From contig OY782781.1 in assembly GCA_963678315.1 (NCBI GenBank), positions 1,088,001-1,152,000 on the forward strand: a DNA stretch of 64,000 bases, given 5' to 3'. Below are positions 15,001 through 39,000 of the stretch, piece after piece. The DNA is from Candidatus Cloacimonadales bacterium. Lineage in GTDB: Bacteria; Cloacimonadota; Cloacimonadia; Cloacimonadales; JAFGVF01. The position numbers were made by a program. Each line of letters begins with the position of its first letter. The stretch's first letter is position 1.

Positions 15001-18000
15001 ACAGGAACTCCTGATTTCATTGCCATATCCATAACTTTAGTTATTTTTGCAGCGTGCATTTCTCCTAAAGAACCTGCTCTAGCTGTAAAATCTTGTGAAT
15101 ATGCAAAGACAGGTCTTCCATTAACAAGACCATGACCTGTGATTACACCATCTGAAGGAATATCTACTTTTTGCATTCCAAAATTAGTGCATCTGTGAGC
15201 AACAAATTTATCTACTTCTCTAAATGTACCAGCATCGAATAGAAGATTGATTCTTTCACGAGCTGAAAGTTTGCCTGAAGCATGTTGTTTAGCAACTTTA
15301 TCTGCTCCTCCCATCTCTTCTACTTTCGCTTCACGAGCCTTTAACTCCTGAATCTTTTGTAAGGTAGTTGACATAGCATCTCCTCTAATATATATTTTTT
15401 ACTTGAATTTTATTCATTATGTAATTTTTATATAGCTGATTATATTAGGCAAGTTTTTTTTTAACAAGCATTTTATGGAAACAGGGAAGGTAAAGAATAG
15501 AAGCCCTAGGAATAGTTAAACCTAGCCATGATTGAAATCATGGGCTTGGGCTACTACACCCCGATGAGGTAAAATGTATAATTGGATAATAGATTAATGG
15601 GATGATTTTATCCTTTTTCTATCCCGAAGGGATTAATTGTCCAAAGCCTAGCTTTTCAAAGCTAGGTTAAATGAATCCCCTCACCAGCATAGTCCTGAAA
15701 GGACTTCAAATGCCTTCTTTTAATCATTATGAAGAGATTAAGTCCCTTCAGGACTACAAATCTATCGGTGTTCTTTTACCCATGATTAAAATCATGGGCT
15801 TGGGCTCTACACCCCGATGAGGTAAAATGTATAATTGGATAATAGATTAATGGGATGATTTTATCCTTTGTTATCCCGAAGGGATTAATTGTCCAAAGCC
15901 TAGCTTTTCAAAGCTAGGTTAAATGAATCTCCTCACCAGCATAGTCCTGAAAGGACTTCAAATGCCTTCTTTTAATCATTATGAAGAGATTAAGTCCCTT
16001 CAGGACTACAAATCTATCGGTGTTCGTTTACCCATGATTAAAATCATGGGCTTGGGCTCTACACCCCGATGAGGTAAAATGTATAATTGGATAATAGATT
16101 AATGGGATGATTTTATCCTTTGTTATCCCGAAGGGATTAATTGTCCAAAGCCTAGCTTTTCAAAGCTAGGTTAAATGAATGCCCTCACCAGCATAGCCTG
16201 AAAGGACTTTTATGACATTTTAATCCCATATATATTTTGGATTATAAGGTATTTTATATTGATTCAAAAATTTAGTAAGTTCATTTTTAAAATCTGTTCT
16301 TTTATGATGTTCTTTCTGATTGCTAATATACTCAACAACTAAACTTACATCCTGTGGCTTGATTGAAAATGCTCCATAACCACTTTGCCAATTAAAATGA
16401 TAGTTCAATGTAAAAGTAACATTGACCCATTTTGATGTTGAGCCTTTCAAACGCTTCATGAAATCTGATAATGAATAATTTTTAGATAGTTCACATAAAA
16501 TATGAATATGGTCTGTGAAACCACCAATTTTGATTAGTTTTGAATCTAAAGATTTAATAATTCTACCTATATATTTATAGAGCTGTTCTTCAATCTCTGG
16601 TGTAATTGTATTTAATCGGTTCTTAGTACTAAACACAATATGTCGATAGTTTTTTACTAGTGATTGCCCCATAACCACTCCTTATATCTTTTAATGAACT
16701 CATGTAATATAATATATAATCGTAACTATTGTCAAATCATAAATAATTTTATTTTAGGAAAAAGTCCCTTCAGGACTACAAATCTATCGGTGTTCTTTTA
16801 CCCATGATTAAAATCATGGGCTTTGGATATTGTACCCCTTTGGGGTAAGATGAACATTTGATTACACACAAATAAATTCAATCTTTATTATCCTCGTTGG
16901 GGTTAAAATGAACAATTGGGTAATGTATAAACAGATTGATTGATTTACCTTTTTCTATCCCGAAGGGATTAATTGTCCAAAGCCTAGCTTTTCAAAGCTA
17001 GGTTAAATGAATCCCCTCACCAGCATAGTCCTGAAAGGACTTCAAGTGCCAAAGTCTAGCTCTTCTTCAACTCCTTAATCAACGTCTCAATATCAACTCG
17101 CATATCATTGTCTGCGTTAAATTTGGCATCAATCATTTTCTTAGCATGAAGAACTGTTGTATGGTCTTTTCTATTAAAGAAGCTTGCAATTTCTTTTAAG
17201 GATAATTGTGGTATCAACAGACTGATAAGGTACATAGCAACTTGTCTAGGGAAGGCAATATTTTTCTTACGAGTTTTATCCATTATTTGTGAACGAGTAA
17301 TGTTGTAAAAAGAACAGACTTTATCAACGATAGAATCTTCTGTTATATCTTTAGGTCTATCAGAAATCATATCAGCAAGAATCTCTAAAACTAGTTCCTT
17401 ATCAACATCATTAGGATTCATCTTATTGTAGGAGGCATAAGCTAGGATTCTGATTAGAGAGCCTTCTAGAGCACGCACAGAACTAGAAATATTATCAGCA
17501 ATAAATTCAATGATTTGGTCATCTATATATATATTTTGATTTTCAGCCTTTTTCTTCAAAATAGCAATTCTAGTTTCAAAATCAGGATTCTTAAGGTCTG
17601 CGACTAATCCTGATTCAAAGCGAGTAACCAGTCTATTTTCTAAGTCAGGAATATCTTTAGGAGGTCTATCACTTGTTAGAATAATCTGCTTTCCTGCTGA
17701 AGATAGAGCATTAAAAGTATGGAAAAACTCTTCTTGAGTTCCCTCTTTCTTAGAAAGGAAGTGAATATCATCAACAAGGAGAACATCAACATGTCTAAAC
17801 TTCTGCCTAAATTGAATCATTCTATTCTTCTTGATTGATTCAATCATTTCATTGGTGAACTCTTCTGAACTGATGTAATAAACGATTTTGCTGTTATCAC
17901 AGTCTAGAATATACTGACCTGCTGCTTGCATGAGGTGAGTTTTTCCCATTCCAGATTCCCCGTAAATAAATAGAGGGTTGTAAGTCATACCTGGAGCTTC

Positions 18001-36000: not shown

Positions 36001-39000
36001 GTTAGACAATAATGAATCTTGCCTTGGAGAAGAATTAATTAGATATAAAGCTGTGGCTAATATTGCGGCTACAAGAACTTCTTGGTATAAGGTTGGTTGG
36101 CAAGATCCTGGTTATGGAGGCTTACAATCATATAATACCCATATCGTTGAATATATGTTTAATAATAACTACTCCTATGGTAAATCACAAGGCTTGGCAA
36201 ACTTCCTACATACAAACTTCTATCTCTTTGGTGATCCTATAGATTCGGATGGTATTATTCATCCAGAGTTGAAAAATATCTACACTCACCTTCTATTTGG
36301 CGATCCTGCTGTTAATTATCAAGCTGATGACCAAGCTTCTGATGGAGATATTCTTATTATGGATAGGTCTATTGATCAAAATGGGATTGCTTTAATTAAT
36401 GCCCTTAATGATAACTATAACTACAATATAATCTATTCTAACAAACTAATACCTGATTATGAGATGTATAATCGCTTTGAAGCTATCTTCGGACTTTCAT
36501 CCCATAGCGATGCTCTAAATGTTCCTCTTCTTAATTGGGAGGTTGATTTACTTAATGAATACTATAACAATGGTGGAAGAATCTACTTTGAAGATTTCTA
36601 TTATCTCCAAAACCAAATCTATAACGATTATGATATTTCTTCTTATGAAGTTTTGGTTGATATAAGTAATTCTCTCTCTCCTTTGAATGATTTACTGGGA
36701 AACTGGAATTATAATGGACTCTACAATCAAGTTACACCAATTTCTGCTAACGGAAGTCCTCTTCTAACTGATGGTACTCACAACTTTATGTATCTTCTAG
36801 AAAATGGTGATAGCAAGATAATAGTTTCTGCTGTCGATTTGATAGGTTTCTTGAATGAAGCAGATTATTCGAACTTTACATCCCTAATTGATCTTATGGA
36901 TATCCAGCAAACTGTTGCTAATGACAACTCAAATATAGAATCTGTAGATTTAGCTGTTTCTAACTACCCAAATCCTTTTAACCCTGAAACTACTATCTCA
37001 TTTAATGTTGAAAATCAGCAACATGCTAAACTAGAAATCTTTAATTTAAAAGGACAAAAGGTCTATTCTACAATTAAAGATAATTTAACTTCTGGAAGGA
37101 ATACTATTGTCTGGAAAGGAAACAATAGTGAAGGTAAAAAAGTGTCATCAGGCTTGTATTTCTATAGATTAAATGTAGGTGGAAAGAGTGTAAACGGCAA
37201 GATGATGATGGTGAAATAGTGTCATAATTGATAATTGATAAGGCTGGCTGTGTGTCAGCCTTCTAGAAAAGTAAAATTACAGGTGATAGGAAGGCGAGCG
37301 CCTGGCTCGCATCATATCTTGCAAACTCGATGTTTGTGAGATATGAAGATATATTTACAAAAATATGTTAAAGAGTAATTTTATCCTTCCAGAAAAGCAA
37401 AATTACAGGTGATAGGAACGCGAGCGCCTGGCTCGCATCATATCTTGCAAACTCGATGTTTGTGAGATATGAAAATATATTTACAAAAATTTGTTAAAGA
37501 ATGAATAAAAAACTTCTGCATCTAGCAGAAGCTTTTTATAGCGCACCAGGCGTACGCGATCCATCCTTCTAGAAAAGTAAAATTACAGGTGATAGGAACG
37601 CGAGCGCCTGGCTCGCATCATATCTTGCAAACTCGATGTTTGTGAGATATGAAGATATATTTACAAAAATATGTTAAAGAGTAATGTCGGTTTTAAAAGC
37701 TACAAAAGAGGCGAATTATGGATGAATCCAATAAGGGGTGGACTTCTAGAGGGTATCTACCACACTATGATATGTACGATACAATACAATTTATTACATT
37801 TAGACTATATGATTCTCTTCCTTATCAACTAATTGCAAGTTGGAAAGAGATAATAAACTCAAATAATTATAAAGGTCTTAGCAGGCAAGAAATTCGTAAA
37901 AAGAAAATTCTAGTTGAAAAGTATGCTAGAAATGGCTATGGACAGTGCTTTCTAAGACATGAAAAGTGTGCTAATATCGTGAAAAGCCATATTCTTTTAG
38001 GTAATAAAAAAGATTATGAATTATTCGAATATGTCATCATGCCAAACCATGTTCACGTTTTAATCAGAACTCTTGATACAAGCAATTTATCAAATATTGT
38101 AAGAAGGTGGAAATCTAGAACAGCTCATGAAATAAATTATGTATTAAAGCGTAAAGGAAGTGTTTGGATGCATGGTTATTATGATACTTATATCCGTAAT
38201 AATGAACATTTAAACCATGTTGTTGAATATATTAGAAATAATTAGAATTAGAAATTTAATGTTTGAATAAAAAGCTTCTGCATCTAACAGAAGCTTTTTA
38301 TAGCGCACCAGGCGTACGCGATCCATCCTTCCAGAAAAGTAAAATTACTGGTGATAGGAAGGCGAGCGCCTGGCTCGCATCATATCTTGCAAACTCGATG
38401 TTTGAGAGTTGTAGGATAGTTCTTTGCAATCTAATATTAAAGAGTAGTTTTTATCCTTCCAGAAAAGTAAAATAACTGGTGATAGGAACGCGAGCGCCTG
38501 GCTCGCATCATATCTTGCAAACTCGATGTTTGAGAGTTGTAGGATAGTTCTTTGCAATCTAATATTGTTATTTTGCATTTGAAAAAGGGCTAATTGTAAT
38601 TTGTAAATATTAACGAAAAACAAATAAATTGTAAAAAAGATAAAAAACTCATTGACAAAGAAAAATAAATACTACTATAATAGCACTAGAATAATAAGAG
38701 AAAAAGTATCCTTGTTATGAAGTGTAGTTAGCTATAAGAGAAATTAGACACACCACACTACATACAAAAAGGCTGATAACAACGATTAACAGGATATGAA
38801 TGCTGATTGATTGAATGAATTTAGTGAGTTCCTTATGGATTACATCACCACAGTAATTCTAAGATGACAAAAGAGCTAATAACAATGATTTCAATCAAGA
38901 TGTTGAAAAATATTAACACTATAGTAGAGAGAGAAAATGGAAGACTAAATATAGTGTTCGATTACTTCACCACGGTAATCGTTCACTCTGTTTTTACAAT

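Follow-up and report, generated by a model that had tools for sequence, protein, structure and literature searches.

The question raised by this locus is why nine divergent Y1 transposase genes of one genome each lie amid hairpin repeats, and why six of them crowd around dnaA. The window analyzed here is a 64,000-nucleotide stretch of a Candidatus Cloacimonadales genome of 2.99 Mb. A PF01797 profile search of the genome returned nine matches above cut-off, all open frames without stops, in line with the nine genes counted in the initial annotation. Six (A to F) lie at 16220-38245 of the window, within 22 kb as had been stated, and dnaA is placed between A and B (Table 1); the remaining three (G, H, and I) lie outside this cluster. 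By our own arithmetic, a scan statistic gives six of nine points within 22 kb of 2.99 Mb a chance of ~1e-8. We consider it probable that these are nine REPtron-like loci, each an intact single-copy HUH/Y1 gene between copies of its predicted cognate REP.

Table 1. Y1 genes, repeat flanks and neighboring features, in window coordinates.
Feature	Position	Strand	Details
Gene A flank	15526..16209		252-bp mosaic unit x2.7 (TRF); hairpins CCCATGATTAAAATCATGGG, ATCCCGAAGGGAT, CCTAGCTTTTCAAAGCTAGG, AGTCCTGAAAGGACT; modules at depth 10-40 genome copies; hairpin fold -7.3 kcal/mol, z -5.2
Y1 gene A	16220..16678	-	152 aa; subclass-1.2-like; DHIH, WQ, YISNQKEHH; PF01797 E 6.3e-26; alignment A3
Gene A other flank	16760..17050		Same modules as 15526..16209, direct; 6 direct HSPs, <=103 nt (flank-to-flank BLAST)
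dnaA	17056..18402	-	Pfam Bac_DnaA, DnaA_N, Bac_DnaA_C; two perfect DnaA boxes upstream, 18502-18510 and 18656-18664
B-type REPs upstream of B	18780..19110	+	NCCC-loop-GGGN hairpin, then G(G/A)CATA(T/A)A tail; plus CATGGGGT..ACCCCATG hairpin; depth 40-80 genome copies
Y1 gene B	19162..19614	+	150 aa; subclass-1.2-like; PF01797 E 4.9e-25; alignment A3
B-type REPs downstream of B	19620..20390	-	Inverted vs upstream set; in 335-bp unit x1.9 (TRF); 20 inverted HSPs, <=145 nt
C-type REPs upstream of C	22150..22245	+	3 copies; ACTGGGAACGC foot + GCTGGCT/AGCCGGC-type stem (sequence, fold); depth 40-80 copies
Y1 gene C	22286..22825	+	RAYT-like; PF01797 E 3.8e-12; start probably MHKLKG, giving 173 aa
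C-type REPs downstream of C	22850..23060	-	Inverted, foot distal to gene; 17 inverted, 0 direct HSPs
35-bp tandem REP array, left part	24409..24510	+	2.9 units; cut by IS21 (TRF, sequence)
IS21	24511..26869	-	istA 25305-26801, istB 24580-25308; in 35-bp array; GTCTCTT duplicated at both ends (Pfam)
35-bp array, right part (gene D flank)	26870..27115	+	7 units; ACTGGGAACGCCGGCCTCCGTGCCGG (TRF, sequence, fold)
Y1 gene D	27148..27669	-	173 aa; RAYT-like; 64% identical to C
D-type REPs	27765..27898	-	ACTGGGAGCGCCAGCCTCCGTGCTGGC x4; inverted vs 26870-27115; 12 inverted, 0 direct HSPs (TRF)
E-type repeats	33190..33460	+	GTAG/GTAA "double-foot" hairpins (GTAGCCA..TGGCTAC, GTAAGCT..AGCTTAC) + 50-nt REPIN-like doublet GCGTAAGCATGAAC...GGATGCTTACAC; fold z -2.7 and -3.4; 60-150 genome copies
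Y1 gene E	33495..34016	-	173 aa; RAYT-like
E-type repeats, other side of E	34080..34410	+	108-bp unit x2 (TRF); direct; 13 direct HSPs
F-type 126-bp units	37259..37690	+	Contain GGAACGCGAGCGCCTGGCTCGC; plus terminator-like hairpin; 5 copies, all local (TRF)
Inverted variant hairpin within F-type flank	37510-37570		Sequence
Y1 gene F	37718..38245	+	175 aa; most divergent RAYT-like paralogue, 45-52% identity
F-type units downstream of F	38275..38566	+	128 bp x1.9; direct; 5 direct HSPs, <=207 nt

All nine genes had been labeled RAYT-like, a name that fits six of them. By sequence, C, D, E, F, H, and I appear to be class-2 RAYT-like proteins, and their NHVH and YIxNN motifs resemble those given for subclass 2.4 RAYTs (Bertels group 4) in the parts of PMC6006769 cited here, as read from the motifs rather than from the authors' profiles. 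Genes A, B, and G instead match the IS200-like TnpA-Y1 subclass 1.2 of Quentin et al. (2018), judging by the motifs described in those same parts: they encode 150-152 aa with DH[IV]H (NHIH in B), WQ, YIxNQKxHH and a conserved C-terminal tail, and share low copy number and divergent paralogues. No change was seen in the HuH histidines or the tyrosine, either among the six window proteins or in alignments A2 and A3. The A3 profile of subclass-1.2-like proteins matched IS608 TnpA (2a6m, E 7e-12); the RAYT-like sequence profile matched IS200 structures weakly (E 3e-4) and did not reach 4er8, the E. coli TnpA_REP bound to REP. An AlphaFold model of C (pLDDT 84) had 4er8 as its top PDB match (E 1.5e-5, TM 0.54-0.56), followed by IS200/IS605 transposases, so that its predicted fold is closest to a REPtron protein. 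On the NCBIfam RAYT model NF047646 gene C scored 62.3 bits and the RAYT-like proteins 61-66, none reaching the cut-off of 80; this and the weak profile match count against the preferred reading. They differ from REPtron proteins also by a ~45-aa insert after the first strand; it precedes the HuH motif, unlike the insert between strand 3 and helix C given for subclass 2.4 in the cited parts of PMC6006769. In our trees the six RAYT-like genes formed one clade (83/94), with an inner C+D+E+I group (97/91), and A, B, and G another (97/88) in a subclass 1.2 tree to which each relative contributed its best locus only. The support for the six-gene clade is only moderate and was counted against the preferred reading. 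Each of the two Y1 lineages appears to have expanded inside this bacterial lineage, the hairpin stems diverging alongside the proteins.

Every gene was found to sit among repeats of its own, as the initial annotation had proposed. The left and right flanks have repeats in common at all nine genes (flank-to-flank BLAST), inverted at B, C, D, and H and direct at A, E, F, G, and I. Flanks of different genes have almost nothing in common, with alignments of 17-182 bases only for A-G, C-D, and D-I. Since similar repeats occur only at the most similar proteins (C-D, 64%; A-G, 59%), the core pairing, earlier drawn from adjacency, is supported beyond it by gene-specificity and protein-repeat co-similarity, to which control-tested layout elsewhere and replication polarity are added below. 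The pairing claim falls short for three genes, because no dispersed family exists for F, H, or I; the repeats there amount to 3-5 local copies, as had been cautioned. Direct, not inverted, flanks at five of the nine genes were listed against the preferred reading. The earlier concern that such flanks oppose pairing does not hold, because IS200/IS605 elements, as known from IS608, carry hairpins at both ends on the same strand.

That same-strand layout of IS608 would also suit a different explanation, namely that the genes are ordinary autonomous IS200/IS605 insertion sequences with the hairpins as their left and right ends, which would account best for the five direct-flank genes. IS200/IS605 elements (IS608, ISDra2) have the HUH/Y1 fold in common with these loci, as well as hairpins in a subterminal position that are read on one strand; genes A and B score 64.1 and 63 bits against the cut-off of 55 for the NCBIfam IS200/IS605 equivalog NF033573, and the few copies at F, H, and I would fit as well. 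However, no two genes are alike (pairwise protein identities of 45-64%), whereas IS copies are near-identical in Table 1 of PMC6006769, among the parts cited here. None of the six window genes has a tnpB-size ORF of at least 100 aa beside it. The flanks of four genes are inverted, and hairpins with 40-150 copies far outnumber the genes, making this explanation highly improbable.

Repeats with at least five copies fill 92,004 of 322,379 intergenic bases in an intergenic self-BLAST, a share of 28.5% of a space delimited by crude ORF-based gene calls; the earlier figure was 93.6 kb in 286.6 kb. Recounting at no more than one mismatch returned eight motif totals exactly (150, 114, 135, 73, 71, 60, 57, and 47) and 82 for the ninth, AAGCCGATTTTTCAA, for which the earlier 53 referred to copies of a 50-nt palindrome. 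Tandem arrays are present both in the window (TRF) and genome-wide, where 29 intergenic arrays have a period of at least 100. Their position, once described as often upstream of large cargo genes, reduces to a modest enrichment: 10 of these 29 adjoin a gene of at least 800 aa, against 8.5% of all genes being that large, and repeats are ~2-fold enriched next to genes for large secreted proteins. No REP gain or loss event was seen, and short-read contigs aligned to the window are interrupted at each array.

Most families lack the canonical GT[AG]G foot, a point against the preferred reading. In place of GTAG, the conserved foot is GGAAC, in many cases CTGGGAACGC, unpaired and located 5' of a GC-clamped variable stem. 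A perfect 6-bp stem follows 141 of the 295 intergenic GGANCG sites (6/295 after shuffling), and among these hairpins the 5' arm takes 18 different forms, matched by compensating changes in the 3' arm. The B-type hairpins (133 genome copies) likewise include three compensatory stem variants of 51, 50, and 18 copies. DNA folding of ten examples gave the expected stem with an unpaired foot in all ten. These results point to selection on the hairpins.

The same layout is found in other genomes. Flanks have repeats in common at 33/35 loci of RAYT-like homologues in other phyla (mismatched controls, 2/35) and at 25/28 loci of subclass 1.2 homologues in the same phylum (controls, 1/28). In the sister genome G003 the inverted hairpin flanking its 1.2 gene has 87 copies, compared with 10 in G009 and 0 in G000, and the reversed pattern none in each. 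The GGGANCGC foot occurs at 9 of the 11 closest RAYT-like loci and 3 of 24 more distant ones; across phyla, the foot motif accompanies the protein clade. In favor of expansion inside the lineage, the foot CTGGGARCGC has 153 copies here, 35-71 per genome in genus g2 (seven genomes) and 1-7 in g3 (four genomes; controls, 0-2).

These comparisons weigh on the idea that hairpin arrays come first, independently of Y1 enzymes (through slippage, recombination or another enzyme), and that Y1 genes land or survive in them. Because IS21 also sits in arrays, adjacency may come from insertion preference, and the pairing would then be an insertion-site effect. Two IS21 copies lie within arrays, as annotated, and do so cleanly, with target duplications; the genome total is not two but seven, 100% identical over 2359 bp (BLAST). 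The purely local repeats of F, H, and I and the many simple head-to-tail tandems would be explained too. We nevertheless regard an arrays-first origin as unlikely: a separate family surrounds each gene on its two sides, more similar proteins go with more similar repeats, the layout elsewhere far exceeds its controls, the foot moves with the protein clade, and the identical IS21 copies are not family-specific.

Repeat orientation tracks replication direction rather than transcription. The leading-sequence:other ratio was 58:2 for GGATTGTAAGCTTCC, 87:27 for GCGTAAGCATGAAC and 163:95 for CTGGGAACGC, and the bias persists where the two neighboring genes are each oriented against replication (15:0, 15:3, and 29:8). 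Per-copy counts overstate it, tandem copies not being independent; per-locus counts are still biased (91/139 and 17/18). The E family changes polarity at ~740 kb and ~2.0 Mb, and oriC is predicted near contig 740 kb from the GC-skew minimum and a DnaA-box cluster. As this is 365 kb from dnaA, the six-gene cluster is not at the origin. Among the relatives searched there is no Y1 gene beside dnaA, no such six-gene cluster and no synteny around dnaA, and the location "around dnaA" therefore has no evident meaning. Rather than a replication-origin feature, the 22-kb cluster is most likely a site of duplication and re-specification, or an insertion-tolerant repeat-rich stretch.

A host function has also to be weighed, with domesticated proteins, hairpins serving as terminators, mRNA stabilizers or chromosome-organizing sites, and the dnaA position reflecting a part in the control of replication instead of selfish spread. 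Old and intact, the genes occur in single copy between housekeeping genes; two of them flank dnaA, and another DnaA-box cluster is found 2.4 kb from G. The enrichment beside large secreted-protein genes points the same way. We find this reading quite improbable given the distance of dnaA from oriC and the relatives without a Y1 gene beside it; near the 1.2 genes of relatives DnaA boxes are not enriched, with a single perfect box in 94.5 kb, and no Rfam family matched in the region.

The REPtron-like reading rests on likeness to RAYT/TnpA_REP genes with cognate REPs, REPINs or BIMEs, described for E. coli, Pseudomonas fluorescens and Stenotrophomonas maltophilia in the cited parts of PMC3686654, PMC3733652, and PMC6006769. 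As in those accounts, single-copy Y1 genes lie between their own palindromic repeats, which are dispersed intergenically and cluster as mosaics and tandems; one genome holds several gene/REP pairs, and a constant unpaired foot adjoins a variable stem. The present loci differ in phylum (Cloacimonadota, to which the nearest named homologues also point), in foot (GGAAC/CTGGGAACGC instead of GT[AG]G or CGTC), in that many arrays run head-to-tail and do not alternate, and in comprising nine loci from two Y1 lineages, six within 22 kb. The E repeats, with GTAG...CTAC or GTAA...TTAC at both feet, resemble the "double-foot" REPs of subclass 2.4, whose taxon range includes non-proteobacterial phyla; unlike that subclass as portrayed in the cited parts of PMC6006769, no REP is inserted in the genes here and five of the six RAYT-like genes use the GGAAC foot. 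The orientation bias matches the lagging-strand template use of IS200/IS605 elements, described in part in PMC6006769.

By analogy with E. coli TnpA_REP and IS608 TnpA, we infer that each enzyme would act on its assigned REPs, binding the folded hairpin on single-stranded DNA at the replication fork. For a RAYT-like enzyme the feature read would be the unpaired foot GGAAC (usually CTGGGAACGC) on the 5' side of a GC-clamped stem of 6-7 bp; for the gene B enzyme it would be the NCCC-loop-GGGN hairpin and its 3' tail, G(G/A)CATA. The tyrosine would cut and then rejoin the strand, and REPs could be copied or moved into intergenic DNA, often beside an existing copy, whereby head-to-tail arrays and mosaics may grow.

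The nine Y1 genes are old and single-copy, each amid its own small hairpin family. E. coli and Pseudomonas are known for such a REP/RAYT partnership; the present loci would multiply it many times over, and in an unstudied phylum. Subclass 1.2 is described as lacking REPs in the cited part of PMC6006769; genes of this kind do have hairpin repeat flanks, at all three loci here, at 25/28 related loci and in a sister genus.

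The genome, a single contig of 2,988,751 bp with 32.8% G+C, carries nine Y1 transposase genes that match PF01797 above its curated cut-off of 23 bits (45.7-91.8 bits, 9 of 9), none of them with internal stops. We call these genes A to I; A to F lie in the window, which spans contig 1,088,001-1,152,000, and G, H and I elsewhere on the contig. The H-x-H pair and the tyrosine of YIxN are invariant in the three protein alignments (A1, six window proteins; A2, RAYT-like proteins; A3, subclass 1.2 proteins), and the closest named homologues of the window Y1 proteins are Cloacimonadota MAG proteins with 54-59% identity, which makes Cloacimonadota the probable phylum. 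The initial annotation had described nine Y1 genes, each set in hairpin arrays, with six clustered around dnaA. As a whole, this observation is confirmed. The core of the interpretation attached to it also stands, while the place of the replication origin, the RAYT-like label for A, B and G, and the IS21 count need correction.

Positions of the Y1 transposase genes and neighboring features, with the stems of the flanking hairpins
Feature	Position	Strand	Match or remark	Stem (arm/arm)
Y1 gene A	window 16220-16678	-	PF01797	
dnaA	window 17056-18402	-	between A and B	
Y1 gene B	window 19162-19614	+	PF01797	
Y1 gene C	window 22286-22825	+	PF01797	GCTGGCT/AGCCGGC
IS21 copy	window 24511-26869		one of 7 copies, 100% identical	
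Y1 gene D	window 27148-27669	-	PF01797	CCGGC/GCCGG and GCCAGC/GCTGGC
Cassette	window 29225-30522		strain-variable	
Y1 gene E	window 33495-34016	-	PF01797	
Y1 gene F	window 37718-38245	+	PF01797	GCGAGC/GCTCGC
Giant genes	window 39062-51016		1978 and 1858 aa	
rRNA operon	window 51610-56897	+	16S, tRNA-Ile, tRNA-Ala, 23S, 5S	
Y1 gene G	contig 599366-599818	-	PF01797	
Y1 gene H	contig 795932-796486	+	PF01797	GCAACC/GGTTGC
Y1 gene I	contig 1688104-1688670	+	PF01797	GCCACCA/TGGTGGC

The nine proteins fall into two lineages. C, D, E, F, H and I (171-188 aa, pairwise identity 45-64%) share the motif NHVH, YI[RQ]NN at the end and an insert of about 45 aa past the first strand (alignment A2). The AlphaFold-type model of C (pLDDT 84) finds as its top PDB match 4er8, the E. 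coli RAYT with its REP (short hairpin repeat), followed by IS200/IS605 transposases. Every Foldseek match of this model, the single one made, at E ≤5e-4 is a Y1 transposase. Judged by their motifs and the repeats of gene E, these six proteins resemble subclass 2.4. A, B and G are shorter (150-152 aa, pairwise identity 47-59%) and carry DHIH (NHIH in B), WQ, YIxNQKxHH and a conserved C-terminal tail (alignment A3). Both A and B, the two scanned, pass the NCBIfam IS200/IS605 cut-off, and the A/B/G profile matches IS608 TnpA (2a6m, E 7e-12), the fold support for these subclass 1.2 proteins being this sequence profile. Table 1 of the reference classification lists DH[IV]H, WQ, Y---Q--HH, a length of about 148 aa and a conserved C-terminal tail as hallmarks of subclass 1.2 (PMC6006769). 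Compared with that table by eye, A, B and G show the motifs that Quentin et al. (2018; PMC6006769) give for subclass 1.2.

Unlike IS200/IS605 insertion sequences, the nine genes are single-copy with divergent paralogues and no identical or near-identical copies (maximum pairwise identity 64%), and no ORF of at least 100 aa fitting tnpB lies beside any of the six window genes. Single-copy genes with divergent paralogues are shared with RAYTs and with REPtrons, that is, a Y1 gene together with its cognate REPs. Genomes with several REPtrons have already been described in P. fluorescens, S. maltophilia and R. baltica (PMC3686654, PMC3733652), and the nine loci are therefore not a new kind of system. 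Their agreement with known REPtrons is partial. C to F score 61.4-66.2 bits with the NCBIfam RAYT model NF047646 (REP_Tyr_transpos), below its equivalog cut-off of 80, and the repeats flank the gene in inverted orientation in 4 of 9 cases (B, C, D and H), the flanks of A, E, F, G and I being direct. The REPs of A, B, C, D, E and G are dispersed at 20-150 copies, whereas those of F, H and I are local only, with 3-5 copies, in line with an earlier caution that the repeats of three genes are few. The foot (the unpaired bases beside the stem) is GGAAC/CTGGGAACGC in the repeats of C, D, F, H and I, from which the 5' GT[AG]G foot is absent.

Flank-to-flank comparison found repeats common to the left and right sides in all nine genes. 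The genes with direct flanks carry composite units, and those of A and E hold inverted hairpin pairs. Flanks of different genes share nearly no sequence, the exceptions being A-G, C-D and D-I, and protein similarity is likewise highest in A-G and C-D. The repeats of C, D, F, H and I follow a common design, with the unpaired foot GGAAC, usually ACTGGGAACGC, preceding a gene-specific stem of 6-7 bp that starts with GC, and on either flank of C, D and H the feet point outwards. Across the genome, a perfect 6-bp stem follows 141 of 295 intergenic GGANCG sites compared with 6 of 295 after shuffling, and these hairpins comprise 18 distinct 5' arms, each with a compensating partner. A GTAG or GTAA foot occurs in E-type repeats only; the gene E hairpins have it at both feet and are accompanied by a 50-nt doublet. 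Such 'double-foot' REPs are described for subclass 2.4 in section 12 of PMC6006769. Gene B is faced from both sides by hairpins of the form NCCC-loop-GGGN with a G(G/A)CATA tail, present genome-wide in 133 copies with three compensatory variants.

The same layout recurs in other genomes. Among RAYT-like homologues from other phyla, flank repeats are shared in 33 of 35 loci compared with 2 of 35 mismatched pairs. The foot GGGANCGC is found in 9 of the 11 closest RAYT-like loci (Cloacimonadota, Gallionella, Nitrotoga, Kiritimatiellae and Lentisphaerae) and in 3 of 24 more distant ones, where Verrucomicrobia show GT[AG]GC feet. The present genome has 153 copies of the word CTGGGARCGC, the seven genomes of one related genus of the family have 35-71 each and the four of another 1-7 (controls 0-2). 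Subclass 1.2 homologues were present in 89 of the 151 genomes of the phylum searched; where flanks were usable, 25 of 28 loci share flank repeats compared with 1 of 28 controls, and NCCC-loop-GGGN hairpins bearing CATA-type tails recur among these related loci. In G003, a sister-genus genome, the hairpin flanking the subclass 1.2 gene has 87 copies, with three upstream of the gene and, on the opposite strand, four downstream; two degraded Y1 remnants likewise lie between copies of it. The same hairpin occurs 10 times in a second relative (G009) and 0 times in the present genome, and a control with the reversed pattern found none in any of these genomes. The classification enters subclass 1.2 as 'REP: no' (PMC6006769). 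The hairpin repeats beside A, B and G, in 25 of 28 related loci and beside the G003 gene contradict that entry.

Repeat abundance largely agrees with the first estimates. Eight of nine module totals were reproduced exactly; the ninth motif, AAGCCGATTTTTCAA, gave 82 matches, the earlier figure of 53 referring to the 50-nt palindrome that surrounds it. Repeats with at least 5 copies occupy 92,004 of the 322,379 intergenic bases (28.5%, with the intergenic total resting on crude ORF-based calls of 2247 genes) instead of the 93.6 of 286.6 kb first given, and make up 3.1% of the genome. Exact 16-mers put the share at no less than 18% for ≥5 copies and no less than 28% for ≥3 copies; exact 12-mers were left out because they are too short for an AT-rich genome. 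TRF found 29 intergenic arrays with a period of at least 100 and 38 with a period of 25-99. Ten of the 29 long-period arrays adjoin a gene of at least 800 aa, a size reached by 8.5% of all genes. Where BIMEs have REPs in regular alternating orientation, mosaic tandem units are found here, yet many arrays consist of one REP repeated head-to-tail (e.g., the 35-bp array at window 24409-27115).

Other repeats accompany the REPs. A terminator-like palindrome of the CCTTGAAAAA...TTTTTAAGG type, belonging to the 50-nt palindrome family, lies at window 22085-22125 just outside C-type REPs, and a second one adjoins the array at contig 602,800. G-poor, A/C-rich units rich in CACGAA, CACGGATAA and CACAAA words occupy window 30990-32130 and 19810-20000, intermixed with B-type hairpins. 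A conserved ...CAGTGTTCTATT motif stands at or close to the ends of these units and recurs at contig 602,44x, and in sequencing run X1 the contig depth of this repeat bin is about 30x that of the flanks. As initially noted, two IS21 copies interrupt arrays, but the total is seven identical copies; the two in arrays carry target duplications. The contig depth of IS21 relative to its flanks is about 9x in X1, about 2x in X2 and X4 and near zero in X6. Since the seven copies are 100% identical and depth varies among runs, IS21 is a recent, strain-variable invader.

The dnaA cluster was at first expected to mark oriC. Cumulative GC skew turns at ~740 kb and ~2.0 Mb, and the strongest DnaA-box cluster lies at contig 740,121 (9 boxes in 600 bp, 4 perfect). 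Contig 740,100-740,470, with its 9 boxes, 4 perfect in both orientations, exactly at the skew minimum, is probably oriC. As the skew minimum and the strongest box cluster both fall at 740 kb, the predicted oriC is ~365 kb from dnaA, and the dnaA cluster was rejected as its marker. Six further boxes (2 perfect) occur in a single orientation at contig 602,210-602,390, fully intergenic, 2.4 kb from gene G and adjoining a REP array at 602,560-602,790; they could form a DnaA-titrating site or a promoter. A tie between DnaA boxes and subclass 1.2 genes was also considered, such boxes lying near B and G, but was dismissed because the relatives' loci are at background level, with a single perfect box in 94.5 kb.

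Relative to these landmarks, the repeats favor the strand with the lagging-strand template sequence, which is the strand used by IS608-type enzymes. Favored and other strands hold 58:2 copies of GGATTGTAAGCTTCC, 87:27 of GCGTAAGCATGAAC and 163:95 of CTGGGAACGC; between genes that both oppose replication the ratios are 15:0, 15:3 and 29:8, respectively. The bias persists with each locus counted once, and the polarity of the E family reverses at both the predicted origin and the predicted terminus. A strand switch near 450 kb was rejected, since binned counts put the flip at ~740 kb. Action of IS608-type enzymes on the lagging-strand template is described in PMC6006769.

By our own arithmetic, the chance of finding six of nine Y1 genes within 22 kb is about 1e-8. 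The genes between them include a carboxyltransferase, malic enzyme and MgsA, as well as secreted proteins that carry type IX sorting domains; as the intervening genes are ordinary housekeeping genes, the cluster belongs to the core chromosome and is not an island. Same-family genomes have 3-14 Y1 matches each; no more than a few of these are spaced 25 kb or less apart, and none adjoins dnaA. No synteny was detected with the dnaA regions of five sister-genus genomes, where, among window ORFs of at least 100 aa overlapping 5-46 kb, only dnaA and short secreted peptidase-type pieces found matches. Rfam gave no match at gathering score in window 14000-40000. Three studies supplied four runs whose contigs, across window 18700-38600, carry genes B, C, D and F at ~99% identity, so the cluster is at least as old as the species. 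These contigs end at every repeat array, and the listed joints stem from other repeat copies.

The cluster may be a site of duplication and divergence, or a permissive repeat-rich stretch. In trees, the six RAYT-like genes group together and separately from those of relatives (support 83/94; C+D+E+I 97/91). So do A, B and G (97/88), in a subclass 1.2 tree with the best locus per relative. Two unrelated Y1 lineages share the 22 kb, however, and pure tandem duplication is thus unlikely to be the whole explanation.

Between D and E, a cassette that spans the start of a type IX secreted protein of 683 aa and the greater part of a 220-aa ORF is strain-variable, with ~1.28 kb of unlike sequence in its place in one X6 contig. 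Directly past the cluster lie two giant genes with HYDIN/Cep192-type Ig-like domains. In the rRNA operon the 23S match spans 3188 nt of a 2925-position model, so the gene may contain an insertion.

To our knowledge, REP and RAYT work has been almost confined to Proteobacteria, mostly with one to few pairs per genome, and a literature search for Cloacimon* with REP, RAYT, IS200 or hairpin repeats gave no mention of Cloacimon* among the matches listed. Here, one small genome holds nine gene-hairpin pairs from two enzyme lineages, in which feet are shared and stems differ. This series is a test set for how HUH enzymes tell hairpins apart, which bears on HUH-tag and single-strand DNA tools. It widens REP association to subclass 1.2, REP-free in the reference classification, adds a foot motif distinct from both GTAG and CGTC, ties repeat orientation unusually cleanly to replication direction (58:2), and indicates that hairpin elements can account for ~3% of a genome and for over a quarter of the DNA between its genes. 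Tentatively, and with the balance somewhat against it, subclass 1.2 proteins, hitherto an orphan group, might be REP-mobilising enzymes with a substrate of their own (NCCC-loop-GGGN with a 3' CATA-type tail), and the 22-kb cluster the birthplace where Y1 genes of both lineages duplicated and were re-specified to new stems, leaving an enzyme-stem series (GGAAC with GC-NNNN stems). If that were true, a code for the recognition of single-strand DNA hairpins would be readable from this series.
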